Source: Blasia pusilla (taxonomy: Eukaryota). Taken from it: 64,000 nucleotides of DNA. A program made the position numbers and the translations under genes. Position 1 is the stretch's first letter. Each line of letters starts with the position of its first letter. Under the pieces are notes generated by a model, which was given only the letters and a program-made list of their open reading frames with translations, was not told the origin of the DNA and ran no database searches. This document shows positions 1,331 to 64,000 of this stretch, piece by piece. Location of the stretch: NCBI GenBank assembly GCA_050084515.1, contig CM114271.1, positions 15,562,001-15,626,000 of the forward strand, in the 5' to 3' direction.

Positions 1331-4235
1331 CCTTAATGATCATAGTCCTCCAACTGTAGGCTTCTCTCAAGTCCAGAGACACATGAACTTTGATGCAAGT
1401 AATGTATTAGCCTCCGCTGCCCTTCATGGTTGTCTGAAAGACTCATTCACTACAATACATTATCCAAATAATCTCAGTAGTAGCCAGAGATTCGAAGCCC
1501 AAAGCTGTGCACATCATCTTGAATGACACAAAATCCACTGATGGACAACACACCAAGCATGATCATGAGCACCTGCAGTCTCCTCCCATTGACTGAACCT
1601 CTGTATCCAGCCTGGGATTGAGGCGCCTTGAGACATTGGATGTACACATGTAGGTACTCCCCACCCAGATTTGGGGTTGTTGAGCTTCTGCAAACCCCTT
1701 CGATAGGTGAACATATACTCCATGCTACCTTGGGAAGGCCTTGATAGGTTGGGCTTTGGCCGCTGGTTACGTGTACAGTTTTAGCGAAGACCTTATTTAG
1801 GATCTAGGAAGAATGTTTGAGATTCCAGTCTGAGAGTCCAGACATTGGCAGACTATCCTCTTTGTAGGAAGGAGGCGGAGAGTAAGTCCTTATTATCCTC
1901 GTGTAGAGCTTACCAAAGTTGCAGCATCAGTACAATTATTGCCACGATCATTTTCTTCAAGTTGTTCTTCCTGCATAGACACCCAGCAGTTAACTATCGT
2001 TTCAGAAACTTCAAAACTCCGTTCGTATTGACTTTCCAGGAGACTGAGAAGAACATGATGCCGGTGCTTTAACACATCATATCACACACAGGGTGTAGAG
2101 CACAGCACTCCTACCGAATGGAGAATGGAGTCAAGAAAATGTTCAGACAGAAGAGTGGGATATCAGGCCTTTCACCATATTAACATGGTGGCAACTCCTT
2201 GGGTCAAATCTTGAGGTAAACTAGTAGTCAGAACCACAAAAATAAATTTGAGTTTTGAAGAAATAGCCTACTCCGTGGTCATCCACATGAAGATGATGTA
2301 GGGGCACATCCTCTAATGTCAGGTATCCTTGAGCCTGCAAGGTAATTGCACTCCTCATTAATTCTGGTACACCCGCCACAAATCCTGCTACTCCTGGAAT
2401 CAATATACAATTAGCATAGTTCCTCTTGCTTGATTATAAAAATTCTAATAAGGTTCAAGAGAGATCGTTTACATTACTTCTCGAAAAGCATACAAAACTG
2501 GGATCTTTGTAAAAATCTCCGTCAAGAGTTTGAGCAAGAATTTCGAATAATACACATATAAATGATGCTTGGATGAAGGGGAGAGACCGAAATGTACCGT
2601 AGAATCAGTGCACGTCTGCCAGTTCCACTGGTAGCTACTAATATCCCGCGAGTTCCACACACGTAAAAACTCCATCGAAGCCGATTGAAATTCCGCTCCT
2701 GAGAGCGTTCCGTCCCGCATTGTCCTCTTGCCTCTGCCAGCAGGAAGATTGTACACCGTCATAAACCCCGTAGCTAGTCCGTCTGGATAAAGTCTGAAGT
2801 GTACTGCAAGGTTTAAATTATTCTCGGCCCTTCTATCATATCCCCCCGTTGCTGTAGTTCCTTTCCAATGTTCTAGAATTGAACCTGGACAGATCAGGAA
2901 TCTCTTAATGTCTGCCTGATCTTTCAGTAATGAGAGATGTAGGATCTTTCGTTTGTCAATAGGGAAGCAAGATGTTCACAAGTGGAAGAAAATGACAAAA
3001 TGTTGAAGAACGAATGGTTCAAGCGATTGCTCCTGATGCCAGATGACCTATAAGTATTGACGCTCAACTCCGTAGAGTGCAGCTCGTAGGCCATTTCTCA
3101 AGAATTTAGGGAGTGAAGGCAATCGGCAACCAGACATGCGTTTCGACTTTTCAATGATCACCTGCCATATTCCCAATTTCCCAAGTTTTGCACTCACATA
3201 CTTCAAACCAACTTACATACGGATAGAGATATTACAGGATCGTCGTCAATCCCGACCAGTTGAAATGATTTTTTTTCTAATTTAAAATTATTTACCTTTC
3301 CATGATTGAAATATAAAATTTTTTTAAATAAAAATTTTCAATTAAAATTTAAATAATGCTCAACTTCCTTAAATGCTTTCAAATTTATAAAATATTTTAA
3401 AGATAAATATCTATTGTATATTTTCCAAAAACTGAATTATTAGTTGATTTTAATTAAATTTTTTCCAAAATTATGGAATATAAATTAACATGATTGTTTA
3501 AAGAAATCATATTTCATTTCAATATTTAATAGAAATTTTATTTTCTTAATAAAATTCTAGTCTTCTAAGGAATTCTAATACTCAATTAAAATTTGCATGA
3601 TATCCCATTCTCTTAAATAATTTCATCTTTCCATAAAATTTAGACTATACTAATTTTTTCTCATTAATTAATAATTAAGGGATAAAATTTTAATTTTTTT
3701 CTATATTTATCACACTATTTTGTGTTATTATATACAAAGGATTACCAATTCTAATATTAATTAATTTATTAATTAATAAAAAAATCCTCTTTAACTCAAA
3801 TTCAATTTCTCTATCCATCTAATTTGAATGGAGTGGCAAAATTTAAGCATGTTGCTACTTTATTTAAAGATTAATTCAAGGTTCATGCCAACAAAATTAT
3901 GACAAAAATTAATTGAAAGTTTTGCTTTGAAGTTAATTTCATTTTTGGGAAAAAATGAAAAGGATAATAGGACACTAATGGAACTAGAATCATTCTCCAA
4001 AATAAATTTAAACAATGGATGACATGTTATTTCTATATTATCTTTAATTTTCAAGTTAGTTTGGAAGAAAAACTTAATCCCTCTTCTAGAAAAAAATTCA
4101 TCAAAAGAGAATGATTTTCTTTAACTTATTGAAAGATGGGGAGGATTGGAAAAGGGATAAATTATTTTTTCCAAAATAATAAAGGAAAAGATATGAACAA
4201 TTTTCTTGAGCCAAGTTAGATGTATTATAAAATAA

Positions 4236-4380
4236 TCTATCTTTCTTATTTTTTTATCTTTTTTAAAATTAAAATTTATTCATCGTGTGCCCATTAATTT
4301 GACGTTATCATCCTCCATATGTTAGTCTTTTCATTCCCAATCATCTCACCCGGTCCATTGCACGTGCAAAAAATTACTAG
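4236..4380 (+). mobile_element. Short non-autonomous Helitron-like element
   Basis: 5' A|TCTATC; 3' degenerate hairpin CCCGGTCCATTGCACGTG followed by CTAG|T. Confidence 0.35.
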
Positions 4381-6057
4381 TATAGATAAAGGAGGTTTTT
4401 CCTCAAAAATGAAATCAAACTTTTTCTTAATTTTCTCTTCTTATAGTATAAACATTTATTTTTTCCTCTCCATGTTCGTAGTAAAACGATGAAGTTATAA
4501 GAGAATCCGAACTTTAGAACCCTAACTTCTACCAAACAACAAAAGGGCAACTTGGAAGCTCAATATAAGTTTTTCAATATGATTGAGATTATTTTGATGT
4601 ATGGAGAAGACACATGCTAGAATTCAAAAGCAATATTTTACACTCTTTCAAAGTCAATTGTAGTATAGAACATTATATAATATGCTTTTAGGAGGGTGCT
4701 TTCTATTTGAAAGATAGCGAGTTTTTTGCAAGGATGCAAGTGGGGCATGAATGGAGACTCTTCGTCCAATTTGCAAACCATAGGTATAGGTGTCTTGACA
4801 TAGACAATCATTACGTTTGCTTGCAAGAGAAGTTGGAGTGTGATGGATTCATTCATAAGTTCATAACCAACATGGAAATAGACATAAAGGTTCCACGATG
4901 AAGAATCATTTTGTTTATGTTTATTAGAATGATCGCATGAATAATCAAGCTTCTAAGTTCCACACTTGATGCATGCAAGACTTGCACAAGTGCTATAGAT
5001 GAAGAGGCCAAAAACACACTTACCCAAGCATCATGGTGAGAAGTTACTGAATGGGACAAAAAGTTAGAAGACGTTTGCCTTGTTGGATGGATTAACTTAC
5101 TTAAAGAAGAAGTAGTTGGAACCATAATCACAAAATAAGAAAGGAAAAGAAGAATTGAGTTTGACAATGACTTATAAGATGGTGATTTTGAGGATAAGAA
5201 GCCTCCTCCTACTAAGATTTCAAACTTGGCCATTTGGAAGGTCTCCAAAGGTGACATCAAGAATTTCGAGGCATTGGAAATTTGGCACATCATTGGAGCA
5301 TTCTAATGAAGTTTCTAATGGTAGCGATATCTTGGGTATAGAATTATGGAAGGATGACCATCTCATTAATTTGGCCAAAGAGGAGCAACATACCTAAGAA
5401 AAAACAAGTGATTGGATTGAGGAGACAAATAAAGCAAGTGGAGCATTAGAACAATCTAAAATAAACAAGGAAATCTAGAAAACCCTTTGCAATCATTAAA
5501 TAGCATAGAAGATATTTTGGATTAAAGAGTTTCAAATTGTACTAGGGAACAATTGCCTTGTAAAGTTGCGAATAAAGGGGTGATGTATAAATTTGAATAA
5601 AAAATTCCATGAGATCATAAGAACGGCATAAAGCTAGATGAACTAGAAACTCAAATTGATTGTTGAAGAGAAAAAGTAGGATTCCATCCCAAAATAAAGA
5701 AATCAAAAAGAAAATGTTTCAAGCCTTTAAGGCCCTTCAAGTATTATATGCCTACATAATAATCTGAATGTTCTTTCCAACTTTTTCTATTTGGTCATAA
5801 ATCTTTAAAGGGTTATTTTAAAATTTTTTCCCATGCCTTATGGGTCCTCGAGATACAATGCTCGATTTTGTCGGTCCAATTCCAAAATCCTAATCTTAAT
5901 TTTAATTAAAGTGGTTGGTAAAAATATTCACCATGAATCACGTTGACCTTGAACTTCATCTTCCTTCAAACTTTGGAGCAAGGTTTTACAAGGTTAGAGG
6001 GACCAAGATACCAATGCAAATTTTCCCACTAATTTATTTTCTTGGTTTAGATAGTGA

Positions 6058-7177: not shown

Positions 7178-8327
7178 GTGTTGTCTTCAGACAAGGGGGA
7201 GCGTATAGAGGAGTGTGTTAGTGATCCACCGTACACATTGAGTGGTCCTACCACTTGGGCGTACGAGATGGACGACCAGGGTAGAGGACGGCGTAGGTTT
7301 TCGGGTGCTGTAGGCACTATAGAGCTATACGACTTCATTGCGGAGTTTAGGAGTTGGTTTGACTCAAAACGGGCTTGTAACTCTAGAGAGTTCTACCCGT
7401 TTACAACATGGAACGGTATGTTCCAGCATTTAGAGGGGGCGTCCATGGACGATTACCATGAGTTCTCCAACAGATATGCCCAAGAGATTGAGGCATGGCG
7501 ACTCTACTATGACCCACACTATGTGTCATGGACGTTCCCAGATGAGGAGGAGGAGTCAGGAGAGGCTACTTCCTCTTTCATTAGTGATGTTTTAGGAGGG
7601 TTCACTCGTACTAGAGCAATTGCATCGTTTAGTCGGGTTCGTCCGAGGTTCAACCCTGTGGTTGAGTTCTTTACTGAGTTGAGGGTGAGCTACCAAAGAA
7701 GTTGGAACAAAGAAGTTGTGGAGCATCCACAATTTCCAAAGGCGCCCGGGTGAGAGTTTGCATGAGGCTTACACTTGCTTGCGTTGGTTGATCAACGTCA
7801 CTCAGGGGGTGACAGAGGCTCAGGCTATCCAGTCATGGTACACGATGCTGGACTGGACCCTGCGGACACGGGTACGGGAGGGGGTGCTTCTTATGAATAC
7901 CTTCCCTATGTTGAGAGATGCTTTTAGGACGGCCAAGAACATTGAGCGCAACATGGCGGAGGAGAGCGTAGCCACCATGGGTTCTGGGCGATAGCACTCC
8001 CGATTGTTTGCACCACCTGTACAACAACGTGGACTCTGAGATAGGTCGACTGTGGCATCACGAGCTCAAGGAGGATATTAGGAGGTCGTGCCACAGAGAT
8101 CTGCACCTTCATATGCGGCTCAACAACAGCCGCCTACTATTCCTTGTTGGTCATGTGGTGGAGCCCATCATCAGCGCGATTGCACTCGTCAGGGTCACGG
8201 ACGTGTGCCTCAGCATGGAGGAGGAGATGGTGCCGCACCAGGAGGTTATGAGTGTGAATATTGTCAGAGGTATGGTCATACACGCGCCAGGTGTTTCAGT
8301 TTACATCCCGAGTTACGTCCGGACTGA
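7178..8327 (+). pseudogene. Gag (capsid-like region plus two zinc knuckles), frameshifted
   Basis: ORF pieces 7178-7753, 7716-7994 (QRRPGESLHEAY, MHR-like) and 8088-8327 with CWSCGGAHHQRDC and canonical CX2CX4HX4C CEYCQRYGHTRARC. Confidence 0.85.
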
Positions 8328-9149: not shown

Positions 9150-9604
9150 CCATGGCTTCTCTTGGTGTTGTGTTGCTAGATAATCGAGGAGAGGTCTTCC
9201 ACTTGGTGAGTCCTGGAGGTAGAGCTTTTAGTCCGCAACGCATCTTGTTGGATTTAGGAGCGCAACCCCTGATGTTGGGGAAAGTGTCATTCAGAGGAAT
9301 GGGCTTGACGAGAGCCGATGTGGAGCGTTGTCCATTCCGGATACAGATATCCTTGGGTGGAGCGAGCATCACACAATATATCATCCGATAAGAGGTCATG
9401 GTGAGGATTCGCCCGGGACATCCTACAGATGAGTCCGTGGTGCGAGCCAAGGCGATAGTGACTGATACAGAGTCCTACCACGTCTTGGTTGGTGGAGCAG
9501 TGTTATACCCGATGGGGTTTTTCCTGGATTACTGGGAGGAGTCAGCATCCTACAGACCAGGATGGCAGTCACGTAATGGGCGCCTTAGCTCATTACCCAT
9601 TTGA
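9150..9604 (+). pseudogene. Retropepsin-like aspartic protease
   Basis: RILLDLGAQPL (Asp codon 9251-9253; copy 2 has ILLDPGGQPL) and downstream YHVLVGGAVL. Position between Gag and RT fits. Confidence 0.7.
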
Positions 9605-9961: not shown

Positions 9962-10890
9962 GATATTCAAGTATTAGATCTCCTTGGAGGGATTAGCATC
10001 GGGTAAGCTTCTGTTTTGCAAGCACGAGTGCAGCAGGTGCTGTAAGTGGAGAGTGATGATGTTGCAAGGCGCGTCTCACTACGACATGTCGTGCAGTTAT
10101 GCCTACGTTTTCCCAACTTGTTGTCTACGTCCGCGATACAGGGGTACCAGAGTTCCCTAGCGAGAGATATTTCGTTGTTAGGGGCAGAGGACTTGGAGCG
10201 GGTAGGGACCATTGATTAGGTCATTGCAGGTTGGCCATGTCAGGGTCAATCGAGTGCTGGACGAGGCATCGGGTTGGTTGACACTCAATATTTTGGGAGA
10301 TGCTGAGGGTCTTGAGATATTTGCAGGAGCATCAGTCTCGTTCTCCGGCTTACATTGTGGAGAATGTACCGATCTTGGGCGATTCAAGGTCATGGGTAGT
10401 GATGAGTGCACATCAGGTGCGTGCCTAAATTGGCCCAATATTAGTTTTGGATGCGGCGAGTGTGGACATCGCCCGGGTCTATGATGGACCAACATGATAC
10501 CACACGAGGTGTTGCGGAGGGCGTATGCAAGAGTGGAGCGCCCCTCCCACTTGTTAGTGGATTCCATTATGGATCCGGGTCATGGATCACAAGCAATGAG
10601 GCATGATGATCGACCGCCGTTGATTGTGGTCAATAGGGTAGGCCGGCCGCGGGCAACCTTTCCCACGTTTGTGAGTTTTCCTGCTTCCTATGCAGACAAG
10701 GAGGCCAATCCTGGCTTGGTTTGGGATGACCAAGTTCAAAGGTTGGTAGAGCCCAATGCCAATAAGAGAGAGCGGGCGATGGGATTTCCCACAGGAGTGA
10801 CGGCAGTACCGTCAGTGCCAGAGGCATCACGACGCCATGTCTTCGGTTAGGCGATGGACCTGAACTGCTTGACATGGATCTTCAGCTTGG
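9962..10890 (+). pseudogene. C5 cytosine DNA methyltransferase domain within retrotransposon pol (copy 1)
   Basis: Motif I VLDLLGGISIG (9971-10003); motif II VESD; motif IV VIAGWPCQGQSSAG (PCQ 10235-10243); motif VI YIVENVP (ENV 10360-10368); motif VIII LDAASV..HRPGL*WTN; motif IX RERAMGFPTG; motif X SRRHVFG*AMD. Motifs are in linear order, with stops and frameshifts. Confidence 0.92.
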
Positions 10891-11231
10891 GAGTGGCTGA
10901 GCAACATCGGATGAGATCACAACAGATCACAGCGGTTGTGTTGGTGAGCCCCATGCCTACCGAGACAATGGAGGCAGTGGCTGGGGGCGAGACCCGAGGA
11001 GATGGACACACCAGGGGAGATCGAGAGAGACACCCTTTGACTTCTTGGGATGTTTTGCAGGTACGCCAGGAGATGATAGCCACAACATCGAGCATGGTTC
11101 CAGGCACTGCATGTGGAGGAGATCAGAGTTTGAAGTTGGTTGCAGGAGAGCGGCCAAGTGTTGGTGTTTGAGACGGGATTGCACCATAGCAACCATCGAT
11201 ACCCGCCCCGGAGAGTCCTATCGTAGTCACG

Positions 11232-12660
11232 ATGGAGACTTGGGAGCCAGATATGGGCCCTAAGTTGACAGGAGAAGAGCGGCGCTGGATACATCAGTTC
11301 CTTAGGAGTTATAGGAGCTGCTTTGCGTTTAGCATGGAGGATTTGGATATTCTGAAGGGACTAGGGATCCGCATTGAGTTGTCGAGTGATACACCAATCT
11401 TCCGACGATCCTACACGTACAGTGATATGGAGAGGGCTTTGATTCAAAGTAGGACCCAGGACTTGGTTGGAGCAAGACTAGTGGAGATGTCGCATGGGGA
11501 GTATGCATCTGCCACTATCATGCTTGCCAAGAAGGATTTGCATGGCAACTCGACGGATAGGCGGATGTGTGGGGATTACCGGCCTGTCAATCGGCAGACA
11601 AAGTACGATAGGTATGCCATGCCCACTCTTGAGGAGATCTTTGATACAATTGATCACACAAAGATATTTAGTTCATTGGATTTGCGAGCCGGATACCATC
11701 AACTGCCTATCATATTGGAGGATAGGCAAAAGACGGCATTTTGGGGCATCGATCCTCATGGGAAGGATTATTTGTACCAGTGGCGGTTCTTACCATTTAG
11801 GTTAAAGAACGCCTCGGCTGAGTTTTAGAGGGTCATGGATAGGATCTTGGCAGGTCTGGATTTTGCTAGATGTTATATTGATGACATTGTTGTATTTAGT
11901 GCCACGGTTGAAGAGCATGAGCAACATCTAGAGGAGGTGTTCCGAAGATTGTAGTTACATGGGTTGAAGTCACATCCAGGCAAGTGTAAGTTCTTCTACG
12001 ACTAGATTGAGTACTTGGGTCATACGATGTACCTAGATGATCTTGTTGTTTAGTAGACGAAGGTAGAGGCTATTTCACGCATTCCACGCCCTATAGATGT
12101 GAGCTTTGTTCGTGCATTCATGGGATTGGCGAACTTCTATCGGCGGTACGTCAAGGGATTTAGTTTGATTGCGAAGCCACTGACCTTGCTGACCAAGGTG
12201 GATCATGAGTGGCATTGGGAGGATGAGCAAGAGCGAGCATTTCAGCTGCTCAAGGATAGATTGACGTCCGCGCCCATCTTGAGAAGACTGATCAGGGGGC
12301 ATCCTTTCTAGTTGCACACAGATTGGAGCATATTGGGGCTTGGAACGGTGCCCATCCAACATGATGATGAGGGTAGAGAGTTCGTGGTGGCTTACGCTAG
12401 CCGTTCAAACAACATTGCAGAGGCAAAGTACAGCTTGTATGAGGGTGAATGCTTGGCTACGGTATGGGCTGTCGCACATTTCAGGTGTTATTTATTCGGA
12501 AATCCACTGATCATCAACCACTAAAGTGGTTGATGAAGTCTGACAAGCTTACAAGGAAGCTTGCGAGATGGGCTCTGTTGTTGCAAGAGTACGATTTTCA
12601 AGTGGTACATAGACCTGGGACGCTCAACCAGGATGCAGATGGGCTAAGTCGTAACCCATG
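11232..12660 (+). pseudogene. Ty3/Gypsy reverse transcriptase plus RNase H
   Basis: RMCGDYRPVN, FSSLDLRAGYHQ, KTAF, LPFRLKNA, YIDD (11874-11885); RNase H HTDWS..GLG, VAYASR, EGECLA, TDHQPL. Confidence 0.95.
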
Positions 12661-12873
12661 CCCGAGTCAGCAAGATGTGATTGGAGCTCGATGGCATGGA
12701 GAGAATGATGAGGAGTCAGAGCTAGGATGGCACGCGTCAGCCTATTTAGGCTTGTTGGCTATGGAGAGCCAGAGTGTGGAGACTTTGATAGCGAGGTCTA
12801 ATTGAGAGTCCTTGGATCCTGAGGCCAGTAAAGAGACGACATCTGGCGAGATATTCACAACGATGAAGTAGTC

Positions 12874-13960
12874 TTGGAGAATCTGCGTACTGGCAGCGTT
12901 GCGAGCACAGTGGGTGCTAGAGAGCGGGATCGAGTCCTACAGCGAGCCAGACGGTTCCCCTCGGAGGGGACACATGTGTTGCAAGTATGGAAGGATGGTA
13001 GAGTCCGTGTAGTGCCTCATCCTTTGCAGAGAGCACGTTTGGTGCGTCATGCCCACAAGGAGTTGGGTCATTTTGGAGTGAAGCGGACATATAGCTTGCT
13101 CGAGATTCAGTATTGGTGGCAAGGCATGCAGATTGACGTTCAGGATTTTGTTGCCAGATGCATGGTGTGTGATCGAGTCCGAGCATCGTTCAATGCTCCA
13201 ACTCCACAGTTGCATCCACTTCCGATCATGGGTTTAGGTTAAAGATGGAGTTTGGATTTTGCAGGACCTTTGCCTTTGACGGAGCACCATAGTCGTTATA
13301 TGTTGGTGATGGTCGAGCACTTCTCGAAGTGGATAGAGTTGATTGCATTTCCTGACAAAGTGAGTGAGGGAGTAGCGTATGCCTTCCTAGATCAAGTGGT
13401 GAGTCATTACGGCGCACCAGCTGAGGTGTTGATAGACCAAGGTACAGAGTTCCGCGTGGAGTTTCAGACCTTGTGTGATGAGGCATTGATCGACCACCGC
13501 ACTACTTCGCGAGATCATCCTGAGGCGGATGGACTAGCGGAGCAGGTTTTGTAGATGATGAAGAGAGGACTACGCAAGTATGGCTTGCAAAGAGGTCACC
13601 TAGGAGATTGGGACCTTGAGTTGCCGTGGTTGGCGATGGGATACAGATTCAGCAGGCAAACATCCTTAGCGTCTTTCTCACCGTACTTGTTGCTTTATGG
13701 CCGTGAGCCAGATTTACCTATGGCCATTCTTTGAGATATTGGTGAGGTGTTGAACCTTGATGACCTTGATGTATGGATGCAAGCATGTTCTGAGAGGGCT
13801 GAGTTGTTTCAGAGAGTGATGCCCATGGGGTTTGTGAACTTGGCGATTGCACAATATTGGGATACGTTGAGGTATGCAACTATTTGAGGAGGTGGTTATC
13901 AACCTACTATCCGGAGGTTTCATCAGGGAGACTATGTCTACTTGTAGCAGACGACACCCA
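12874..13960 (+). pseudogene. DDE integrase
   Basis: HHCC zinc finger (HKELGHFG...CMVC); catalytic LDFAGP, DQGTEF and HPEADGLAE. Confidence 0.93.
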
Positions 13961-14151
13961 CGACGTTGGATGTGACTGCAGGGTGCACCATCTTGAGAGT
14001 GCGTGAGGTTTTGCCATCTGATGTTCTCTTATTAGAGGGACGCGATGGTATGGTTTGGAAGGACTATGTGCGTAACTGTATGCCATGTCATCTTCCGAAC
14101 ATTGACGGTACAGTTGATCCAAGCTTAGCAATAGTTCCTACAGGCTTGCCG

Positions 14152-14292
14152 TGTATGTTGTGTGGTTCCGCCCGTGGTGCAGCGACTATGCTAGTCTGTG
14201 ATGGGTGTTCGAGAGGATGGCATACGGCATGTTTGACGCCACCTCTCACTAGGGTTCCTCAGGGATGGTGTATGTGTCCCAGATGTACATAG
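14152..14292 (+). other. PHD finger at the integrase C-terminus (intact C4HC3)
   Basis: CMLCGSARGAATMLVCDGCSRGWHTACLTPPLTRVPQGWCMCPRC followed by the stop at 14290-14292. Confidence 0.92.
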
Positions 14293-14460
14293 AGTAGGTA
14301 GTTTTACATTCCAACTTGTGTTTGTGACATGGATGACAAGAAGGCGACTAACGATGGGGCCACATGCGCACCCGACCTTCTTGCTCTTAGCGTTCGAGAG
14401 ATATATGTCATGGTAGGTAGGATAGATGGCTATCTGGATTTAGAGGGACCTAACCACCAG

Positions 14461-14471
14461 CTAGGGGGGCG
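14461..14471 (+). other. Polypurine-tract-like sequence
   Basis: CTAGGGGGGCG immediately precedes repeat B1; identical at 33943-33953 (minus strand) in copy 2. Confidence 0.6.
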
Positions 14472-14599
14472 ATTGGAGATATTTTGGTACTTCTTATCTC
14501 GTTGTTTGGATGCCTTGAGTTAGCATGGGATCGTGTGTGTTTGTGTGTGTGTTCGGTGACAACGATGTATGTTGTGTAGCGATATGTATGCGCATAATA
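14472..14599 (+). repeat. Split direct repeat B1 (~128 bp), copy 1
   Basis: ATTGGAGATA...CGCATAATA, a direct repeat of 15116-15244. Confidence 0.9.
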
Positions 14600-14601
14600 G
14601 C

Positions 14602-15115
14602 TGTCACGTCTTTTAGGATAGATCGGTGAGATCTAGTAGAGCGCCTTCGTGAGTAGCAAAGGACAATCTCAATAGGTCGAGGATGACCTGTTGAGACCTT
14701 GGGAAACTTGAGAGAGCAGGTTTCCCCTTCGTTTCGGCTCATTTGGAGCCATATTGAGGAACTTCCTATTTTAGGTAAGTACCATTTTAAGTATATGGTC
14801 AAGTTTATATTTTGGGAAGTGGCCCTTGACCTCCTACATAAGGTCAAGAGCCTAGGAGGTGACTTGGGAGCATAGGTTACCATTGGAGAGAGCTTGGGAG
14901 AGGAGAGGGGTATACCTCAAGGAGAGAGAGCTTGAGAGCTCATTCTCTCTTTGTTGAACCTCTTGGCATAAAGCGGCGGAGCTATGGTCCCTTGCATTGT
15001 GAGTGTAACCCAAGCCTCTCAATAGGAGAGTGGATTTGGTTTGACATGAGAGAGAGTGCACACCTTTGAGAGCTATGGTGTGAGATGGTGTAGAGAGAGA
15101 TTGGATCTTACTTTA
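14602..15115 (+). repeat. Split direct repeat A2 (~510 bp, LTR-like, starts TGTCACG), copy 1
   Basis: Matches the 5' termini of copy 3 (61492-62009) and copy 2 (39527-39938), and 33304-33812. Confidence 0.9.
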
Positions 15116-15244
15116 ATTGGAGATATTTTTGGTACTTCTTGTCTCGTTGTTTGGATGCCATGAGTTAGCATGGGATCGTGCGTGTTTGTGTGTGTGTTCG
15201 ATGACGGCGATGTATGTTGTGTAGTGATGTGTATGCGCACGACA
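15116..15244 (+). repeat. Split direct repeat B2 (3' terminus, ends CACGACA), copy 1
   Basis: Direct repeat of B1; homologous to 33176-33303. Confidence 0.9.
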
Positions 15245-15319
15245 ATGATAAATGCAATATCCAAATCTCATTTTTTTTATTAAATGGTCTACTCGCTCCT
15301 TAAATAAATGACTATTGAA

Positions 15320-17720
15320 TGTTTGGGGTTTCAATTATATGAGCATATACTTTGAAATTTTAATGTACGTTATTATTAGTTAGAATCTGATTCGGATACA
15401 ATATAATAATACCAACTTGAAGCCCAAGTGCATATTCTTGGAATCTTGGTTGAAGTTAAGAATATAAAACTGAATTTTGATAAAAAGATCTAGTTCATTT
15501 TGGGAGAAATGACCAAGGATTATTTTAGTTCCAAGTATAGTAACATTCTCTTAAAAGTTCTTAGAGTTGTCACAAGTTAAGCTAGACTAGAATACCAATT
15601 ATGAAACTAAATTCATTGAAGAAAAAAAACCTAAACTCAAATTTTATTAAAAGGTATAGTCAATTATTAAAGAATTGACATTAGACTTATTGAAGTTCAA
15701 AGTATATGGTCATTTTTTCTAATTTTCTTCAAGGTGTTACAATCTAAGATGGGGTCTAACACCAGGTTTGAGCATAAACACCAAGGTTGCATGACAATGA
15801 ACGAGGCCGGACATATCCACGGACATGGCAGGCTGAGGGCCCAAGGCGCGGGCCTTGAGTGGGCTTAAGGTTGTCCAATGGGGGCCCAACCCATCCTACG
15901 GGCCTCATTGTGGGCCATAAAATGGATGCGGGCTTGGCCAGGTTAGGTCTACGCGATGGGCTTATTAAAGACCAAGTTACAATCAAACTCATCAGACATC
16001 CAAACTGCTACATTTGGTACTCACACAAAGTAGGGTAGCTTAATCTTGGTTAGTCAGTTAAGCGCAATTATCTTAACTAGGGTTAGTTAATCATATTTAG
16101 TCTAACTCGAGACTATGGTTAAGATTAGGGTTAGGGTTGCTTGTACATATCCTATATAATTGAGAAGGGGACTAGACTCCACTCATTTTCTCATTGCAAA
16201 ATTTCGTTCTCCATGGTGGTGTGTGAGTGTGAGAGCCGTTTCCCACAAATTATACTTAAGCAGTTTTCTATAGGGTTGAGCGGGCGGGCTTAGGTGTGGG
16301 CCGTACGTACTCGAGCCGCACAGATATGTACGTCCCTACGATGGACATACGTCCCAAGACATGGACATTTCCGTGGACAAATTTTTTTGTATGCAACCCT
16401 GACGTAGGGCCCTTAGCCTACTATGCGAATACAGCCACGGGTGGTGCAGGTTGTGTGCGGGCCGGGCTCGATTAGCCCGGGTCTGCGCGATGGGCTGGGC
16501 GGGCTCAGGTGCAGGTATCCAAGCTTGCACGGACATGTCCGCAGATACATACTTTGTCCGTGTGCAACCTTGATAAATACCTAGTCTTGGTTAAAATTAA
16601 AAATTTTATTTTAGTTAATTACTCATAAATTATCAAAGAAAAAACCTTGAGGATTTTGGAGTTCAAATTGTATGGTCATATTATTCCAAAAATTTCTAAA
16701 AGGTGTCACAAGCTTAAACGGAGTAAAAATTTAAAATACCGAGTTTGAGCCCAAGGGCCTATTCTTTGTTGAAGTTTAAGTTCTGAAACTCAAATTTGAT
16801 TAAATAAAATAGTCTATAGTCGAAGAAATGACGATTGGGATTTTTAAGTATATGGTTATATTCTTTGAAGAACACCTAGTGATCTAAGTTCTATTCTTGG
16901 TTGAAGTTAAAATCTAGAACTCAAATTTGATTCAAAGGTCTAGTCAATTGTTGGAATGTTTGGAGGTCCGAGTATAGGATAGTATTATTTGAAATTTTGT
17001 GGAAGATTTTATAAGCTAAGATATGGTACAATACCAATTTTGAGCCATAATAGACATGTTTTGTTAAAGTAAAAAATCTAAAAATCAAATTTGATTAATC
17101 ATAAAAGTGTAAGAAAATAAAATGTGATGAAATCACTGAAATCTATTACAAATCTTGGAGATACAAAGTGGCCTAGTCCGTCCGTGCGCTCACAGAAGAG
17201 CTTTGATGAAACCTGAACATGGAGATAACTCGACATACGAGAATGTGCTACCGCTGCGGCTCCCGACTATTTCACTACTCTGGAAACTAGGATTTTCTAC
17301 CTATTTTTCTTCGTTTCTATTGATAGAAAATTTTTTCCGGGGGTTGCGCCCCCGAACCCCCGCGACGCATCAAGGTGCCTTGCACTTTGATGCAATATAG
17401 GATTAGATAATCCCAATAACGCTACTCCATAAACCATCTACGTCATATTACTATGACTCCTCCGACGTCTAAGTCGAAACCATCAATCTAAGCTTCTCCT
17501 CATACAAGGGGGCTGATCAGATTAATGATGCACACAGAAGTGGACGTTGAGAATCGAACAAAAAGGTCTAATCAATTGTTGGAGAATGTATGGTATTGAG
17601 ATTTTTGGAGTTCCAATTGTATAAATTTTTTTATTGAAATTCTACGGAAGGTCCGAAGGTGTGATAGGAAAAGATGGACTATAATACCAAGACAAAACCC
17701 AAATGGTTCAAGTTAAAATG
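15320..17720. repeat. Degenerate AT-rich tandem array (~170-190-bp unit, about 7 copies) interrupted by insertions
   Basis: Recurring blocks: TTGGTTGAAGTTAA, CTCAAATTTGATT, AAGGTCTAGTCAATT, GTATATGGTCATATT, AATACCAATTTGAGCC. Confidence 0.65.
15782..16572. mobile_element. hAT-type MITE
   Basis: TIRs CAAGGTTGCA/TGCAACCTTG; 8-bp TSD ATAAACAC/ATAAATAC; an internal extra terminus near 16399. Confidence 0.8.
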
Positions 17721-33175: not shown

Positions 33176-36100
33176 TGTTGTGCGCATACACATTGCTACA
33201 AAACATACATCGTTGTCAATGAACATACACACAAACACGCACGATCTCATGCTAACTCATGGCATCCAAAGAACGAGATAAGAAGTACCAAAATATCTCC
33301 AATAAATCAATGAAATCTCACATCAATGTCTCACACCAAAATTTCCATGGTGTGCACTCTCTCTCATGTTAAACCAAACCCATTCTCCTAGTGAGAGGCT
33401 TGGGTTACGCACACAAGGCAAGGAGGACCATAGCTCCGCCGCCTCATGCCAAGAGGTTCAACAAAGAGAGAATGAGCTCTCAAGATCTCTCTCTTGGAGG
33501 TATACCCCCTTCCTTGTCCCAAGATCTTTCCTTGGTAACCTATGCTCGCAGGTCAACTCCTTTGCTCTTGACCTGCTGTAGCGGGTCAAGGGCCACTTCC
33601 CAAAGTGGAAAGTTGACTATACTCTAAATGGAAACTTACCAAAAATAGTAAGTTTCTATATATGGCTCCAAATGAGTCGAAACAAAATGGAAACCAACTC
33701 TCTCAGGTTATTCGTGGCCTCAAGAGGTCATCCTTGACCTCCTGAGGCTGTCCTCTAGTATCTCTGAAGGTGTTCTACTAGATCTCACCGATCTATGTTA
33801 AAAGTCGTGACAATTATCGTGTGCATAGACATCCCTACACAACATACATCGTTGTCAACGAATATACACACAAATACGCACGATCCCATGTTAACTCATG
33901 GCATCCAAACAAGGAGACAAGAATTACCAAAATATCTCCAATCGCCCCCCTAGTTGGTGGTTAGGTTCCTCTAACTCTAGATAGTCATCTATCCCTACCT
34001 ATCATGACATATATCTCTCGGAGGCTAAGAGCAAAAAGGCAAGATGCTCATGTGGCCCCATCGTTAGTCGCCTTCTTATCATCCATGTCATTGACATAAG
34101 TCAAAATCTAGAACTTCCTACTCTATGTACATCTAGGACACATCCATTATCCATGAGGAACCCTAGTAAGAGATGGCGTCAATTCTCAAACGCCATGGGC
34201 ATCACTCTCTGAAATAACTCAACCCTCTAAGAACATGCTCGCGTCCATACATCAGGGTCATCAAGGTTGAACACCTCACCAACATCTCGACGAATGGCCG
34301 CAGGTAAATCTGGCTCTCGGCCATAAAGTAGCAAGTACGATGAGAAAGACGCTAAGGATGCATGCCCGCTAAACTCGACTAACATCTGTAGGGTGTGGAA
34401 TGCGTGAAATAGTCTCTACCTTTTTCTACTGTAGACCAAAGCCCCTTGGGTATATCGTATGACCCAGGTACTTAATATGGTCGTAGAAGAACTTGCACTT
34501 CCGTGGATGTAGCTTCAGCCCATGTAACTGCAATCGTCGAAACACCTCTTCTAGATGTCACTCGTGCTCCTCAACCGTGACGCTAAAGACTACAATGTCA
34601 TCAATATAACACCTAGCAAAATCCAGACTTGCCAAGATCCTATTCATGACCCTCTGAAACTCATCCGGGATGTTCTTTAACCCAAATGGTAAGAACCGCC
34701 ACTGGTACAAACAAGTCTTGGTTCCTACTCTGAATCAGAGCCCTCTCCATGTCACTGTATCTATAGGGTCGTCACAAGATTGGCGTGTCACTTGACAACT
34801 CAATGTGGATCCCTAGACCCTTCAACATACCCAAATCATGCATGCTAAATGCAAAACAACTCCTATAACTCCTAAGGAATTGGTGTATCTAGTGCCACTC
34901 TCCTCATGTCAACTTAGGGCCTATATCTGGCTCCCAAGTCTCCATCATAACTACGGTAGGACTCTCCGGCGCAAGTGTCGGTGGTTGCTATGGTGCAACC
35001 CTGTCTCGGAAAATAGAACTTGACTGCTCCCTTGCAACCAACTGTAAAATCGGATCTCCTCCACGTGCAGTACCTAGAACCACGCTCGATTATGTGGCTA
35101 TCATCTCCCGCGAAACCTACAAAACATCCCAAGAAGTCCAAGGGTGTCTGTCTCGATCATCCCTGGTATGTTGATCTCCTTGGGTCTTGCCTGACCCGAG
35201 CCACTGCCTCAACCGTCTCGGTAGGCATGGGGCTCACCAACGCAACAACTCTAATCTGTCGCATCCGCAAACGACGCTGCTTAGCCACTCCTAAGCTAAA
35301 AATCCATGTCAAGTAGTTCAGGTCGATCGCCTGACCCAGGACATGACGTCGTGATGCGTATGATAGTGATGGTACTATTGTCACTCTTGTGGGAAATCCC
35401 ATCCCTTGCTCTCGCTCATCGGTGTTGGGTTCCACCAACCGCTGTACCTAGTCATACCAAACCAAGCCAGGTCCGGCCTCCTTGAATGCATAGGAAGCAA
35501 GAAAACTCACCAATGTCGGAAAGGCTCTTCGTGGCAGACCAATCCTGTTGACCACAATCAACGGCGATCGATCATGATGCCTCACTGCCTGGGATCAACA
35601 ACTTGGATCCAGAATAGAATCCACCAACAAATGGGAGGGGGACTCCACTCTCGCCTACGCCCTCCGCAACACCTCATGTGGCACCAAGTTGGTCCATCAA
35701 AGACGCATGCGATATGCTCGTGAACCTACACTCACCGGATCCAACAACACTTCCGTACTTGATGTGCACTCGTCACCACGCGAGACTTCGAATCGCCCAA
35801 AATTGGCACATTCTCCAGAATGTATGCTGGAGAACGAGACTGATGCTCCTGTCGCAAGATCCGCATCATCTCCCAAAATAACCTGGACCGCGAGTCAGTT
35901 AACCCGCTACCTCGTCAAGCACTTGATTGGCCCTGACACGGCCAACCATCAATGACCAAAGTTATGGTCCCTACCCGCTCCAAGTCCTGCGCCCCCAACA
36001 ATGAAATGTCTCTTGGTAGGGAACTCTAGTAACCCTAGATGGCAGATGCACACAACAAGGCGGGAAATTGGAGGCGTAATTGCGCCAAATGGTGAAGTGA

Positions 36101-39100: not shown

Positions 39101-39938
39101 GGTGGTGTGGCACCAAACTACGGCGGCATAGGCAGCAGGAAACCCGGCAGTCAACAATCGAGTCTGGAAACTACTTAAAACACCCCCTCCAACTTAGGGT
39201 CCGCCATCCTCACTTTGCTCCAAAACCTAAAATCGTGCTGACATATCCCCTTACAAATAGAGTCAACTCACTAAACATAACTTTTTTACTCACTTCTCTT
39301 CCAAGTGACAAGCCCACTTATCTGGTCCACTAGAACACATAAAGTTTTACTTTTCTTCCTCTCCAATAAGGATTTTACCAAAGGAAATTTCAAATTTCAC
39401 TCACACGGTAGCACGGTGGCTATGGCAGCTTGCTCAATCAGCCACAACTTTGTGCTCCAAACTCAGAATCGTGCAGTGTTTCTTCAGCAGCATACACAAC
39501 TTCCCGATCTATGACTTCCTCCATAGGAAACCAAACCCACTCTCCTAATGAGAGGTTTGGTTTATACACACAAGGCAAGGAGGACCATAGCTCCGTCGCC
39601 TCATGCTAAGAGGTTCAACAAAGAGAGAATGAGCTCTCAAGCTCTCTCTCTTGGAGGTATATGCCCTTCCGTCTCCCAAACTCTCTTCTCGGTAACCTAT
39701 GCTTGCAAGTCACCTCCTTGGCTCTTGATCTGCTGTAGTGGGTCAAGGGCCACTTCCCAAAATAGTAACTTTCTTTATATGGCTCCAAATGAGCCGAAAC
39801 AAAGGGGAAACCTGCTCTCTCAGGTGACCCGTGGCCTCAACATGTCATCCTAGACCTATTGAGGCTATCCTCGAGTATCTCCGAAGGCGCTCTACTAGAT
39901 GATCTAGATCTTGCCGATCGATCCTAAAAATCGTGATA
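33176..39938 (-). mobile_element. DNMT-carrying Ty3/Gypsy retrotransposon, copy 2 (both termini, internally deleted)
   Basis: 4-bp TSD TATC (33172-33175, 39939-39942). B2 33176-33303, A2 33304-33812, B1 33815-33942, A1 about 39527-39938. Protease and DNMT are retained; gag, RT, RNase H and integrase carry large deletions. Confidence 0.93.
35290..36215 (-). pseudogene. C5 cytosine DNA methyltransferase domain (copy 2)
   Basis: MLDLFEGISTG (motif I); VIDGWPCQGQS (PCQ 35941-35933); DSRSRLFWEMMRIL; YILENVP (35815-35807); LDPVSVGSRAYRMRL*WTNL; EREQGMGFP; SRRHVLGQAIDL. Confidence 0.92.
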
Positions 39939-40110
39939 TATCCGTGGCATTTATTTGGGAAAAAATTGTGATTCATGCTTAGTCTAGCAGAAAGCACATT
40001 CAGATGCATTCTCATTTAATTGGAAAGAAATTATTTTAAATTAAAAATATTGATTGTATTTGATAGTTCAATTAATAGTTCTTATATCTTCAAAGGGTTA
40101 AGTTTTGAAA
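39939..40110 (+). pseudogene. Ty1/Copia RNase H remnant, 3' part
   Basis: Joined to 33175 across the TSD it reads YGDNIRGIYLGKN...RKHIQMHSHLIGKK (compare YCDNxSAIxLAKNP...TKHIEVHYHFIREK). Confidence 0.8.
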
Positions 40111-41005
40111 TTAGTTAGTTTGCTTCCCTTGTCCTCCTTTCCAAGCTAAGACAATGATGAAATTCTATCACGATATATACTTTATGGTCCTAATACGATT
40201 ACTTTACATATCCAAATGAAAATCAATGAGAATAATCAAGTAAGCATGAAGCCAATAAATTTCGAAGATTTTTCTAAAATTCATCAAAATCAATAAATTT
40301 TACATCATCATTTATGTTATTTTCTATTATGTTAAACTCCAAAAGTGATAACACATGTCCAAAGGCTTTACACATTTTAATTTACCATTGATTCAAGGGG
40401 GTCTCTAGAAATAGCTAGCCCTAGCACTAGCCATGAAAACTTTCAAACAAGACTATCAAAGCTCAAATAATTGAGAAACTTACATATACATAGACTAGTA
40501 AGTTCCTCATATGACCACCAAATAAGCTCAAACCAAGGGAAAATCTATTCTAGCAAGTTATCCTACTTTGCAATAGGTTATCCATGACCTACAGTCACCT
40601 ACTAGACTCAAACTTTGATCTCCACCGAAGCATCACACGAGAACTTGTCGTTCCACTATAAAAAATATGAAAATGTCTGCTTTGGTGTTACCAAAGATCA
40701 ACGCACCTCTACCTCTTATTTTGGATCTACTCTCTCTCTCTCTTCATGGATCATTGATAGATGCCAACTCCCACCTCAAAATAGCCCTCCAATTGGATAC
40801 GTCACAGCTCTTAGATTCTTGCGCTGCCAACACTCATGCCTCTTGCTCCGTAGTACCCTTGGATGTTATTGCCACCAACTGCTATGCAACAATCGTAACT
40901 GGATAACAAAGATCCAAAGTGAATTGGCTATTCTTTATTGTCGTCACATTATTTGATATGCTCCCTTTATTTCCAAAATCTATCTCAACGGCTACTCGCA
41001 TACCA

Positions 41006-61491: not shown

Positions 61492-62009
61492 TGTCACATC
61501 TTTTAGGATAGATCGGTGAGATCTAGTAGAGCGCCCTCATGAGTAGTGGAGGACAGGCTCAGTAGGTTGAGGATGAGCGGTTGAGGCCCGGGGAAACTTG
61601 AGAGAGCAGATTTCCCCTTCGTTTCGGCTCATTTGGAGCCATATTGAAGAACTTACTATTTTAGGTAAGTACCATTTTGAATACCTAATCGGCTTTCTAT
61701 TTTTGGTAAGTGACCATTGACCTCCTACATTAGGTCAAGAGCCAAGGAGATGACTTGGGATCATAAGTTACCATGGAGAGAGCTTGGGAGAAGGGAGGGG
61801 TATACCTCAACAAGAGAGAGCTTGAGAGCTCATTTTCTCTTTGTTGAACCTCTTGGCATGAGGCGGCGGAGCTATGGTCTTGCTTGTCTTGTGTGTGTAA
61901 CCCAAACCTCTTATTAGGAGAGTGGGTTTGGTTTGACATTGAGAGAGACATGTGAGAGTGCACACATGTGAAAACTATGGTGTTGTGAGAGAGATTGGAT
62001 CTTATTTTA
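61492..62009 (+). repeat. Split direct repeat A1 (5' terminus), copy 3
   Basis: Matches 14602-15115 up to GAGATTGGATCTTA.TTTA, then enters unique leader sequence with no B repeat. Confidence 0.88.
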
Positions 62010-64000
62010 CAAAGAGAGAATTAGTGCGTGAGAGAGCTTCATGGGGGACCTCGCACGTCACTCGCTGGTTTTGCAGGTTGGGGATTGTATCCTCTGTTCA
62101 GCGGTTCATGGGAGTGCTCACTGGAGCAAGAGCCGCTTACTTATGATGTTTCCTTTGCCAATTTTTCGTGTGAAAGAGTGGCGCGCGGAAGCGCTGCACA
62201 ATTTTTGATAGGGATTGAGTATGGGGGCGAGTTGCCCCATGCCGATGCTCTCCGAAGCACCATGTAGCTTGCTTATTTGTATTTTCACAGGTTTTACATT
62301 TTTGTTGGAAGATATCAGCGCCGAAGCGGTGTCAAATTTTTTGTAGGAGAAAGAGACATTCGGCTTTATGAGAGTCCCTGTCAATTTTTACTGGAATGTC
62401 TGATTCAAAATATTTTTTAACGCTGTCGTGAAGCTGTGCACATTGTGCAATTTGAAGTTGCGAGCAAAAATTTATGGTCAATCTTGCAAAACTGCCATTG
62501 CTAGGAAAATTTTAGGGTTAAATTGTTGAAACCCTAAACCAGCCGCCACGACGGCGGCGGCCGTCACCGTCAATGGTCCGCCATCGATGGTCAACCATCA
62601 CCATTTATGGTTAATCGGCACCATCAACGGTCAACCGTCCACCGTCCACCGTCCATTGTGTGCCGCCGCCACCGCCTAGCGCTGCTTAGAGCCGCGTTCG
62701 TCCGTTGTCCACCCTTTGGTTGCCATTGCCGCCATTACGGAGTGGAGGATCTTCCACAATGACCGTTGATTCTCTGATTGTGTCGCCACCACATACTTTT
62801 TTTTGGCCGCCACCGTCATTGTAGTTTCGTCATCAACCAGTGATGGCACATGACCTCAGGTTATGGTGTTTGAGTTTTCATTTCATGCTACCATGTTGTG
62901 ATTGGTATCCGCTTGACGATGATCGAGTATCGTGTCGTGACGCCCGTAGCCGCAACGCGCCGCCGATTGCCGCGCCATGCCGCTCATGCCGCACTGCACC
63001 ATCTCGATTGCGGAACTGCTCCTTGACTAAGGAACATAGCGTGTGAATTTTTGATTGAGGAGGGTATGCCGCCGAGTGCCACATCCCATTCCCGAGTGTC
63101 GTGCCATTTGTAGCTGTTCCGTGCCGCTAGTGCCATACCGGACGGCTAGACCTGCACCGCACATCGAGGAGGTTTGAGCATCGTCGGTACGAGAGGAGTA
63201 CGACTTGCTGATTGGAGGAGTTTTCTTCACGAACGGGTTGGGGTCGAGATTTGCAGTTTCTGAGGAGCGACATCGACATTATTGTCAAGTTACCCATTTA
63301 GATTTCTTACCCTTCACATGTGAGGGATTTCTGGATATTTGGTTTCATGTTGATGCTCGGAGCATCGATGATGTATGTAGGGGACATAGACCTGTGTGGG
63401 ATGTCCAGAGTTGAGGATGGTTTGTCGATGGGATGATGTTGATTTGCCGCACCACGCTGGTTGTTGCGGCATAGGACACGTCTCAGTGAGAGAGTGTAGA
63501 TTGAGTGCCGCCTGTTTAGTTTAAGTGATTGAGGGATTACTCGCGAGATTGAGTGATTATGTGAGAGGGACACGAGGGCCATCACGGCGTCCTTTCAAGA
63601 TTTTGAGAGGCAAGGTAGTGGATCTGAGAATAGCTCTGGAGGGTTACCCGGAGTGGTGCGAGGTCTCGAGGATCTCCACGTGAGAGACCACCTCGATCTC
63701 CTTCTATGTCGTCTTCAAACGAGGGGGAGCATATAGAGGAGTGTGTTATTGATCCACCGTATACATTGAGTGGTCCTACCAGTAGGGCATACGAGATGGA
63801 CGACCGGGGTAGAGGACCGCATAGGTTTTCGGGTGTTGTATGCACTATAGAGCTACACGACTTCATTGCGGAGTTTAGGAGTTGGTGTGACTCACAACGA
63901 GCTAGGAACTCAAGAGAGTTCAACTCGTTCACAGCATGGAACGGTATGTTCCAGCATTTAGAGGGGGCGCCCATGGAAGATTACCATGAGTTCTCCCACA
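61492..64000 (+). mobile_element. DNMT-Gypsy family, copy 3 (5' end; runs off the window within gag)
   Basis: Starts TGTCAC; about 62567-64000 is colinear with 6057-7470 of copy 1. Confidence 0.92.

Follow-up and report, generated by a model that had tools for sequence, protein, structure and literature searches.

Split direct repeats, in which a mobile element opens with one repeat (A1) and closes with three in close succession (B1-A2-B2), are described as the hallmark of the tyrosine-recombinase elements PAT, Toc, Kangaroo, Ngaro and Viper (PMC4157794), and programs that search for elements with long terminal repeats (LTRs) expect two identical repeats at the termini. The closest described system is KnitGypsy-Dnmt3 of the charophyte alga Klebsormidium nitens, a Gypsy element that bears a Dnmt3 in its Pol and repeats of DIRS type (de Mendoza et al. 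2018, PMC5890265); the published mention of its layout is one legend sentence, and the DIRS repeat arrangement is defined in the legend to Fig 1e as A-coding region-B-A-B. In the present study, an element with this layout was analysed in a stretch of 64,000 nucleotides (nt) from Blasia pusilla (GenBank assembly GCA_050084515.1, contig CM114271.1, positions 15,562,001 to 15,626,000; hereafter the window, position 1 being its first letter). The three copies in the window are, with high probability, old and frame-broken members of a very abundant and still transcribed Ty3/gypsy (Metaviridae-type) family that belongs to the streptophyte Gypsy-DNMT3 group, and we are equally confident that the native termini of this group are A1, leader and coding region, G-run, B1, 2 nt, A2 and B2.

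The likeness to KnitGypsy-Dnmt3 is one of published description and comprises a Gypsy Pol with a Dnmt3-type methyltransferase, A-coding-B-A-B repeats and a streptophyte host (PMC5890265), whereas the host there is a charophyte alga and the closest named relatives of the window element are found in Marchantia, Calypogeia and Sphagnum. We class the window element as a new member of the Gypsy-DNMT3 kind, already known, from a host group new to that kind, and the suggestion of an earlier note on this DNA, that it may represent an undescribed lineage, fails, since Gypsy domains together with A-coding-B-A-B repeats were already in print. The main text of the 2018 paper mentions a PHD finger 0 times and leaves a junction palindrome, spacer, target-site duplication (TSD) and G-run undescribed. 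Beyond that paper, no description of a split-repeat layout with Gypsy domains or an integrase, of the structure of its junctions or of members from bryophytes was found in the open literature, subscription journals, Repbase and supplements not being covered, and a 2026 preprint just cites 'streptophytes (Gypsy-DNMT3)'. On current showing, three features appear to be new, namely the 2-nt-spaced internal palindrome, the position of the G-run ahead of B and the variants with a single B, and the occurrence of the layout among bryophyte relatives appears unreported in the searchable literature.

Shared with canonical Ty3/gypsy elements are the order protease (PR), reverse transcriptase (RT), RNase H (RH) and integrase (IN), the Gypsy-type RNase H, an integrase with H2C2 and rve domains, TG..CA termini, a short TSD (TATC in copy 2; CATA in relative L037) and, ahead of the 3' repeats, a polypurine-like tract. 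The Ty3/gypsy feature that is absent is the same long repeat at both ends: here the 5' end has A only and the 3' end B-A-B, leaving the element without a terminal direct repeat, and the tract precedes B rather than the sequence of the integrated left end; moreover, the element carries an additional DNMT3 and PHD finger, and in the degenerate copies inspected by eye no tRNA-type primer site stood beside A1. With PAT, Ngaro, Toc, Kangaroo and Viper the element has in common the A1...B1-A2-B2 layout and the position of the internal repeats 3' of the last enzyme domain, and the earlier statement that such termini are typical of tyrosine-recombinase elements is borne out by PMC4157794; their enzyme is a tyrosine recombinase, in contrast to the H2C2 and rve (DDE) integrase, TG..CA ends and 4-bp TSD of the window element. 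The analogy that had been drawn with Troyka did not hold. As described in PMC12440569 (Kojima 2025), Troyka is a divergent, virus-like group of LTR retroelements formerly filed under Gypsy, which is a likeness, yet it is confined to animals and has ordinary LTRs, 3-bp TSDs and CG..CG termini, as opposed to split repeats, a 4-bp TSD and TG..CA termini; 'direct repeat' occurs 0 times in the accessible text of that paper, and 'split' once, in an unrelated sense.

Repeat arrangement of the window copies

Repeats were placed by self-BLAST of the window, MAFFT alignment of the four element ends and nhmmer searches with hidden Markov models (HMMs). The 3' end of copy 1 (plus strand) consists of B1 (14472-14599), a 2-nt spacer (14600-14601), A2 (14602-15115, first letters TGTCAC) and B2 (15116-15244), the last letters of which (CGACA) form the 3' end of the copy. 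B1 and A2 were identified by self-BLAST, alignment and HMM, with read joints likewise giving the end of B, 2 nt and the start of A, and B2 by self-BLAST, HMM and a drop in read depth. A G-run resembling a polypurine tract is evident in the sequence directly before B1 (14461..14471, plus strand). On the minus strand, the 3' end of copy 2 (33176..33942) repeats this arrangement with B1 at 33942-33815, spacer at 33814-33813, A2 at 33812-33304 and B2 at 33303-33176. B1 and B2 are 92.7% identical in copy 1 and 88.7% in copy 2.

Both 5' ends visible in the window (39938 and 61492) open with A alone. That of copy 2 (39500..39938, minus strand; alignment and HMM) begins with TATCAC and is truncated on its 3' side, where about 1 kb of unrelated sequence follows. 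Copy 3 (plus strand) possesses a complete A1 at 61492..62009 (self-BLAST, alignment and HMM), 85% identical to A2 of copy 1 and followed by non-B sequence, namely a leader (62010..62563) that is purine-rich at its start and has no counterpart in copies 1 or 2. Homology of copy 1 begins at 6054, and no 5' end of this copy is visible. The 64 kb contain exactly four matches to an HMM of the four B copies, two at each of the 3' ends, and B was not found in the 190 nt upstream of A1 of copy 3 (local alignment score 21 versus a shuffle mean of 18.7, standard deviation 3.3).

The termini TGTCAC...CGACA place the TG..CA inverted ends in different repeats, at the start of A and the end of B. Together with the 4-bp TSD of copy 2 (TATC at 33172-33175 and 39939-39942), they uphold the claim that these are the true ends of the element. 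It had also been claimed that removal of copy 2 restores the reading frame of a Copia host. This claim was not confirmed: the left frame of the host sequence stops exactly at 33175, that of the right flank resumes at 39943 and the two are compatible, but Pfam named no family for 12 flanking open reading frame (ORF) pieces. By its motifs, the host sequence at 33029-33175 and 39941-40010 (plus strand) presumably resembles the RNase H end of a Copia polyprotein, which Pfam did not confirm. All three window copies are frame-broken.

Three minor features accompany the copies. The host sequence interrupted by copy 2 contains a frameshift near an A-run just past the insertion site. About 550 nt beyond the 5' end of copy 2, a lone A fragment at 40487-40594 (minus strand; HMM positions 69-176, E 3.9e-10), with no B close by, is probably the remnant of another copy. 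Just upstream of copy 3, at 59494-59856, lie two adjoining direct repeats of about 160 bp with 80% identity.

Repeat junctions in reads and relatives

Reads and contigs were aligned to 12800-15500 at 80% likeness, comprising a DNA run (X13, of which about 1% was read; depths are both mate columns summed), two RNA runs (X16 and X17) and the contigs of another run (X1). DNA depth was approximately 2,700-3,700 over 12982-14437 (integrase to 3' untranslated region), with values of 2,343 and 1,695 in the pair of bins covering B1, 3,190-5,562 in six bins of A (14620-15165, the final bin extending into the start of B2) and 4,368 over B2, falling to 0-1 beyond 15256. This profile implies a family of thousands of copies and an element end where the earlier note had put it.

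The positions at which DNA reads leave the reference define the neighbours of each repeat. Before 14602, 1,323 loose ends with an agreement of 0.33 represent diverse AT-rich flanks entering A, and behind 15244, 1,579 loose ends (agreement 0.34) represent B leaving into diverse flanks. A further 947 loose ends behind 15245 have a consensus of one letter followed by the start of A, and each of three joints at which reads go back by 645 positions (63, 91 and 58 reads) consists of the end of B, 2 nt and the start of A. The G-run is joined to B in 454 DNA reads. Behind 15115, 51 RNA reads of X16 and 92 contigs of X1 continue into a consensus close to the first ~30 nt of the copy 3 leader, with 3 differences over ~30 nt (2 mismatches and 1 indel). 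In sum, the internal region or A is found before B, flank or B before A, the leader or B after A, and A or flank after B; a conserved junction from B to the leader was not seen in the reads aligned to 12800-15500. This junction set is that of A-internal region-B-A-B, and the split layout is family-wide.

In database clusters, the piece comprising the integrase C-terminus and PHD finger matched 3,661 representatives at E<=1e-3, of which 611 reached E<=1e-10. A locus search with the pol alignment of the closest long relatives yielded 80 metagenome loci with 27-55% identity to the query, which collapsed to 38 distinct insertions once near-identical loci were merged, and HMMs of B and A were built from the relatives' own units. 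Self-BLAST of the loci revealed, some 240 nt past the PHD finger, paired direct repeats of 85-105 nt about 380 nt apart; in the B-A-B insertions L028/30, L037 and L058/59 the A1 upstream corresponds exactly to the stretch enclosed by the two Bs. The HMM of B matched downstream of pol only, in every one of the 80 loci. Twenty of the 38 insertions are B-A-B, and one more (L063/64) shows a B..B pair that BLAST alone detects; in 13, a single B is directly followed by at least 700 nt of non-A sequence, one has a truncated A and three are too short. Shared flanks (L028 with L037; L027 with L062; L009 with L019 and L051) reduce these to about 19 independent B-A-B and about 10 independent single-B events. 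The same self-BLAST gave an ordinary LTR pair of about 1.1 kb in a distant relative, L035, so canonical LTRs in the loci would have shown up. The split-repeat layout is lineage-wide, far beyond chance. The B-bearing loci have the domain order DNMT-RT-IN-PHD, the same as the window, and in L004, L006 and L042, of the order RT-RH-DNMT-IN-PHD, no repeats were seen 3' of the ORF in the 446-1,267 nt present.

A1 is visible in eight distinct insertions, six of them independent, and B stands beside A1 in none. The earlier note's caveat that only one undamaged 5' end was visible is thereby lifted, the six additional independent ends opening with A only, and as regards its concern that most 5' ends might carry A plus B, B is present at 0 of 8 independent 5' ends. 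Its main claim of split direct repeats A1...B1-A2-B2 is confirmed by the window copies, the reads and 20 of 38 relative insertions. Both window 3' ends and the 20 insertions are B-A-B, and 13 of the 38 insertions have a single B. The latter are L009/L047, L016, L019, L022, L025/26/54, L027, L036, L039/46, L044, L051, L062, L065 and L073/74; in four of them (L027, L039/46, L044 and L062, of which L027 and L062 have flanks in common, leaving three independent cases) an upstream A1 is visible too, which gives the form A...B. Single-B copies have either arisen by deletion or represent a primary form of integration. In L037 the 4-bp TSD is perfect (CATA/CATA), those of other relatives being degraded or ambiguous.

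At the B1/A2 junction, the end of B and the start of A abut with exactly 2 nt between them in a near-palindrome. Relatives have a B end of the ...CACGACA type, 2 nt (AT, AC, GT or GC) and an A start of the TGTCAAG type; the spacer is legible in 18 of the 19 B-A-B insertions displayed, and in L063/64 (L079/80 is illegible and L057 was not displayed). The variants of spacer and junction match those that C-to-T and G-to-A decay of a palindrome GACA-GC-TGTC would give. The G-run precedes B1 and not A, in the window and in relatives, and stands directly before B1 in 19 of 20 representative B-A-B insertions, being interrupted in L010.

Two side observations concern the repeats of individual loci. 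Identity of A1 with A2 is below that of B1 with B2 in copy 2 (78 versus 88.7%), L028 (78.7 versus 85.7%), L037 (79.1 versus 87.5%) and L058 (85.2 versus 86.2%), possibly through conversion between nearby B copies or through unequal decay. In L035 (33% identity) the LTRs lie at 4318-5403 and 11923-13798, the 3' LTR being split by an insertion of about 790 bp.

Integration and replication

As judged from the sequence, integration is of the DDE kind: an rve integrase is encoded, the termini are TG..CA and the TSD is 4 bp, with the start of A and the end of B as the integrated ends. No string is both prefix and suffix of the element, and therefore it is not the direct product of two canonical strand transfers; the integrated form is a circular permutation of the canonical product U3-R-U5...U3-R-U5 (unique 3', repeated and unique 5' regions). 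Since the G-run before B1 is conserved, the start of B would by retroviral rules be the start of plus-strand DNA, and B would be U3.

We tentatively favour, at somewhat below even probability, a model in which a permuted, closed complementary DNA (cDNA) is opened by the integrase at the palindrome. Reverse transcription would yield the repeat unit B-2nt-A, with B, bounded by the G-run, as U3 and A as R-U5, and the linear B-A...B-A cDNA would close head to tail, creating a junction of A end and B start such as that at A2|B2. The DDE integrase would then cut after CA on both strands of the palindrome with a 2-nt stagger, and the recessed CA-3'OH ends with 2-nt 5' overhangs, a normal strand-transfer substrate, would integrate with a 4-bp duplication. 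Single-B copies (A...B) could derive from the opening of a one-junction circle or from later recombination between B1 and B2. DDE enzymes act on abutted ends in the cleavage of retroviral 2-LTR circle junctions and at IS3/IS30-type circle junctions, which have a spacer of 2-3 bp; as in the window element, two end sites lie head to head a few bp apart, there in a closed molecule that can act as the substrate. The retroviral reaction differs in being a side reaction whose junction is not retained in the provirus, and IS3 and IS30 differ in being bacterial DNA transposons. For the explanation as a whole, identity, architecture and mechanism taken jointly, our confidence is evenly poised.

Several observations weigh against this explanation. 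On the side of architecture, short reads give no order of junctions along a molecule and are also compatible with A-B-A-internal region-B, although the two 5' and two 3' ends in the window all conform to A-internal region-B-A-B. Joints from the end of A to the leader came, among the matches listed, from X16 and X1, and their ratio to A-to-B joints in DNA is not derivable. The window A and B are unmatched by the relatives' HMMs (E<=1e-3), so the correspondence of repeats between window and relatives rests on position and short motifs, and every copy with split-repeat ends, in the window as in the loci, is degenerate. On the side of mechanism, we infer the permuted circle from structure. A two-junction circle should yield A-B-A...B equally often, a form seen at 0 of 8 independent 5' ends (two in the window and six in relatives), and the favoured model therefore needs an unexplained asymmetry. 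A TGG-type tRNA primer site directly 3' of A1 was not found by eye in copy 3 and eight relatives, all degenerate copies. Neither the start nor the end of an RNA molecule inside A or B is among the positions listed for X16 and X17. Self-priming or cyclisation through pairing of the leader with A or with the start of B was examined with RNAduplex in eight elements (16 tests) and rejected, with no excess complementarity: 15 of the 16 z-scores fell between -1.0 and +1.2, and one was -2.1 (L039 against A, p 0.03). By eye, the start of B gave no convincing match to a tRNA-type primer site either.

A somewhat unlikely yet serious alternative is replication in the manner of DIRS and PAT elements, with a DDE integrase in place of the recombinase. 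Here the transcript would lack the outer parts of A1 and B2, and B1-2nt-A2 would serve as template or bridge for rebuilding the joined ends on a (single-stranded) cDNA, the junction of which the integrase would open. The layout is identical to that described for PAT, Ngaro and Toc (PMC4157794, PMC5890265), the internal junction exactly reproduces the ends as joined, and no canonical tRNA primer site was found 3' of A1. The ratio of RNA to DNA depth is 0.056 in X16 and 0.064-0.075 in X17 over the internal region, remains close to this value over B1 and over the 5' two-thirds of A, and declines to some 0.55-0.65 of it over the 3' part of A and some 0.35-0.45 over B2. RNA over B2 is above zero (76-133 per bin), as this alternative would have it, whereas the level over the 3' part of A and B2, at about 0.35-0.65 of the internal one with B1 close to it, speaks against it, weakly as the B copies share reads. 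Transcripts containing most of A1 and ending inside A2 would fit the same profile, weakly so because repeat copies share reads, solo forms swell the DNA denominator and the positions listed include no peak of RNA starts or ends in A or B. The conserved G-run of polypurine type before B1 suggests ordinary plus-strand priming at the start of B, contrary to the DIRS-like scheme, which moreover meets the same two-junction asymmetry as the permuted circle.

The RNA profile is also consistent with an RNA that extends from A1 into A2 and so has redundant termini, as would be produced if the replicon were a unit-length circle (A-leader-coding-B) like that of a pararetrovirus, the integrated A...B and A...B-A-B copies being side products of the integrase and the extra A-B merely supplying terminal redundancy for full-genome transcription from a linear copy. 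Thirteen of the 35 informative relative insertions, with a single B and then non-A sequence, and the four distinct (three independent) A...B insertions would accord with such a circle, but single-B forms are equally expected from B1xB2 recombination and the TSDs of the A...B copies are ambiguous. Since integrated copies number thousands by depth and relatives keep a complete integrase, integration would be part of the cycle, and no circle has been seen; we regard this alternative as improbable. It is far less probable still that the element is an ordinary LTR element (A+B or B+A) of which the window copies are rearranged, nested or misassembled. The three copies in the window are indeed degenerate, with A1 of copy 2 truncated and the 5' end of copy 1 missing, yet an independent run of DNA reads, the RNA reads and the contigs of a further run all show the same junction set; nothing but A is conserved after the end of B; B is at no 5' end in the window or the 80 loci; and the layout recurs in 20 distinct insertions of other organisms, under an analysis that does detect an ordinary LTR pair in L035.

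Should the permuted-circle model be correct, the window host, liverworts and mosses may share a DDE-integrase lineage that never integrates a linear two-LTR cDNA and instead opens a permuted molecule at GACA-2nt-TGTC, a generalisation we hold to be possible, if rather doubtful. Split-repeat replication logic, so far tied to DIRS, PAT and Ngaro, would then also exist with an integrase of retroviral type, and the lineage could be a missing intermediate from Gypsy to DIRS-like elements or an independent reinvention. A Gypsy/DDE lineage with split repeats can dominate a large plant genome and is easily mis-annotated; a likely error would be that A1 is paired with A2 and B2 is left outside. The palindrome, the placement of the G-run and the bryophyte spread provide a handle on replication and on the relation of DIRS-like to LTR elements.

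Coding region and transcripts

Pfam was run on 21 unaltered ORF pieces of the window copies, and the features below are those of copy 1 (plus strand). A degenerate frame at 8082..8324 translates into a C-terminal part of gag with CCHC-type zinc knuckles, for which Pfam zinc-finger matches are weak. At 9392..9601, 5' of the methyltransferase, lies a protease-like segment identified by eye through alignment to the protease region of relatives P0006 and P0010; the piece itself has no Pfam match, and in the intact relative P0196 Asp_protease_2 is found at the matching position. The C-terminal part of a DNMT3-type C5 cytosine methyltransferase, with frameshifts upstream, occupies 10485..10847 on the basis of database homologs, and the reverse transcriptase 11190..11825, where RVT_1 matches with E 3.7e-5 and 24 bits, under the cutoff of 29.6 bits; in relatives the RVT_1 match is strong. 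RNase H of Gypsy type follows in three frame pieces at 12057..12802 (RT_RNaseH_2 E 1.1e-17, RT_RNaseH E 4.4e-17), then an integrase with H2C2 zinc domain, DDE core and one in-frame stop at 12832..13551 (Integrase_H2C2 E 9.1e-17, rve E 1.1e-12) and the integrase C-terminal region with a terminal PHD finger at 13948..14289 (PHD E 6.6e-8). The order of the window element as predicted from these pieces is gag-PR-DNMT3-RT-RH-IN(DDE)-PHD. No tyrosine-recombinase family was reported by Pfam for the 21 window pieces or for 16 long relatives (the latter at E<=1e-5). The chromodomain is the usual C-terminal reader of the integrase in chromoviruses, and a PHD finger is carried by the Chlamydomonas Gypsy element REM1.

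The methyltransferase, which lies between protease and reverse transcriptase in the window copies, was examined through its homologs. A 121-amino acid (aa) piece of copy 1 has 10 database homologs at 59-70% identity, 4 of which carry PF00145; a liverwort, Calypogeia fissa, and a moss, Sphagnum jensenii, are among the sources of the 10, and other named homologs are from Marchantia polymorpha and, more distantly, Scenedesmus. In copy 2, the piece at 35735-35914 (minus strand) matches PF00145 with E 8.6e-4 and 19.3 bits, under the 22-bit cutoff, and the translations contain the S-adenosylmethionine-binding and ENV motifs of methyltransferases. P0006, an intact homolog, possesses all methyltransferase motifs and has its best PDB matches in DNMT3A/3B (E 8e-11), followed by plant DRM. 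The DDE integrase, methyltransferase and PHD finger that the earlier note had named are corroborated by Pfam, by homologs and by the PDB match of P0006.

By Pfam, RT, RH and IN follow one another in this order in 13 of the 16 long proteins from relatives; P0040 and P0146 lack an RVT_1 match, and P0019 comprises IN and PHD only. Intact relatives fall into two layouts, one with the window's order in two frames, ORF1 of gag-PR-DNMT and ORF2 of RT-RH-IN-PHD (P0196 and P0012), and one with a single RT-RH-DNMT-IN-PHD protein (P0201, P0040, P0044 and P0145). The methyltransferase thus occurs at either of two sites among relatives, PR-DNMT-RT or RT-RH-DNMT-IN. An intact ORF of 2,074 aa of the latter kind is present in L004 (5903-12124) and extends about 450 aa past the PHD finger.

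RNA reads span the junctions from the internal region to B, from B to A and from A to the leader. Both RNA libraries are strongly one-sided, the first mate lying on the minus strand at approximately 130-280 per bin versus approximately 0-39 on the plus strand, and the transcripts are therefore sense under the usual stranded protocols. The only listed site at which many RNA molecules begin is 14092 (8-9 of 27-29), in the orientation of the minority strand, and antisense transcription may begin there, within the PHD region. At 14129, 14176 and 14472, RNA reads of X16 and X17 exit the reference, and they re-enter it at 14436, with 49-104 reads per site and an overhang agreement of 0.95-1.0, a pattern that points to a single expressed variant or subfamily whose 3' untranslated stretch differs and whose B has another start.

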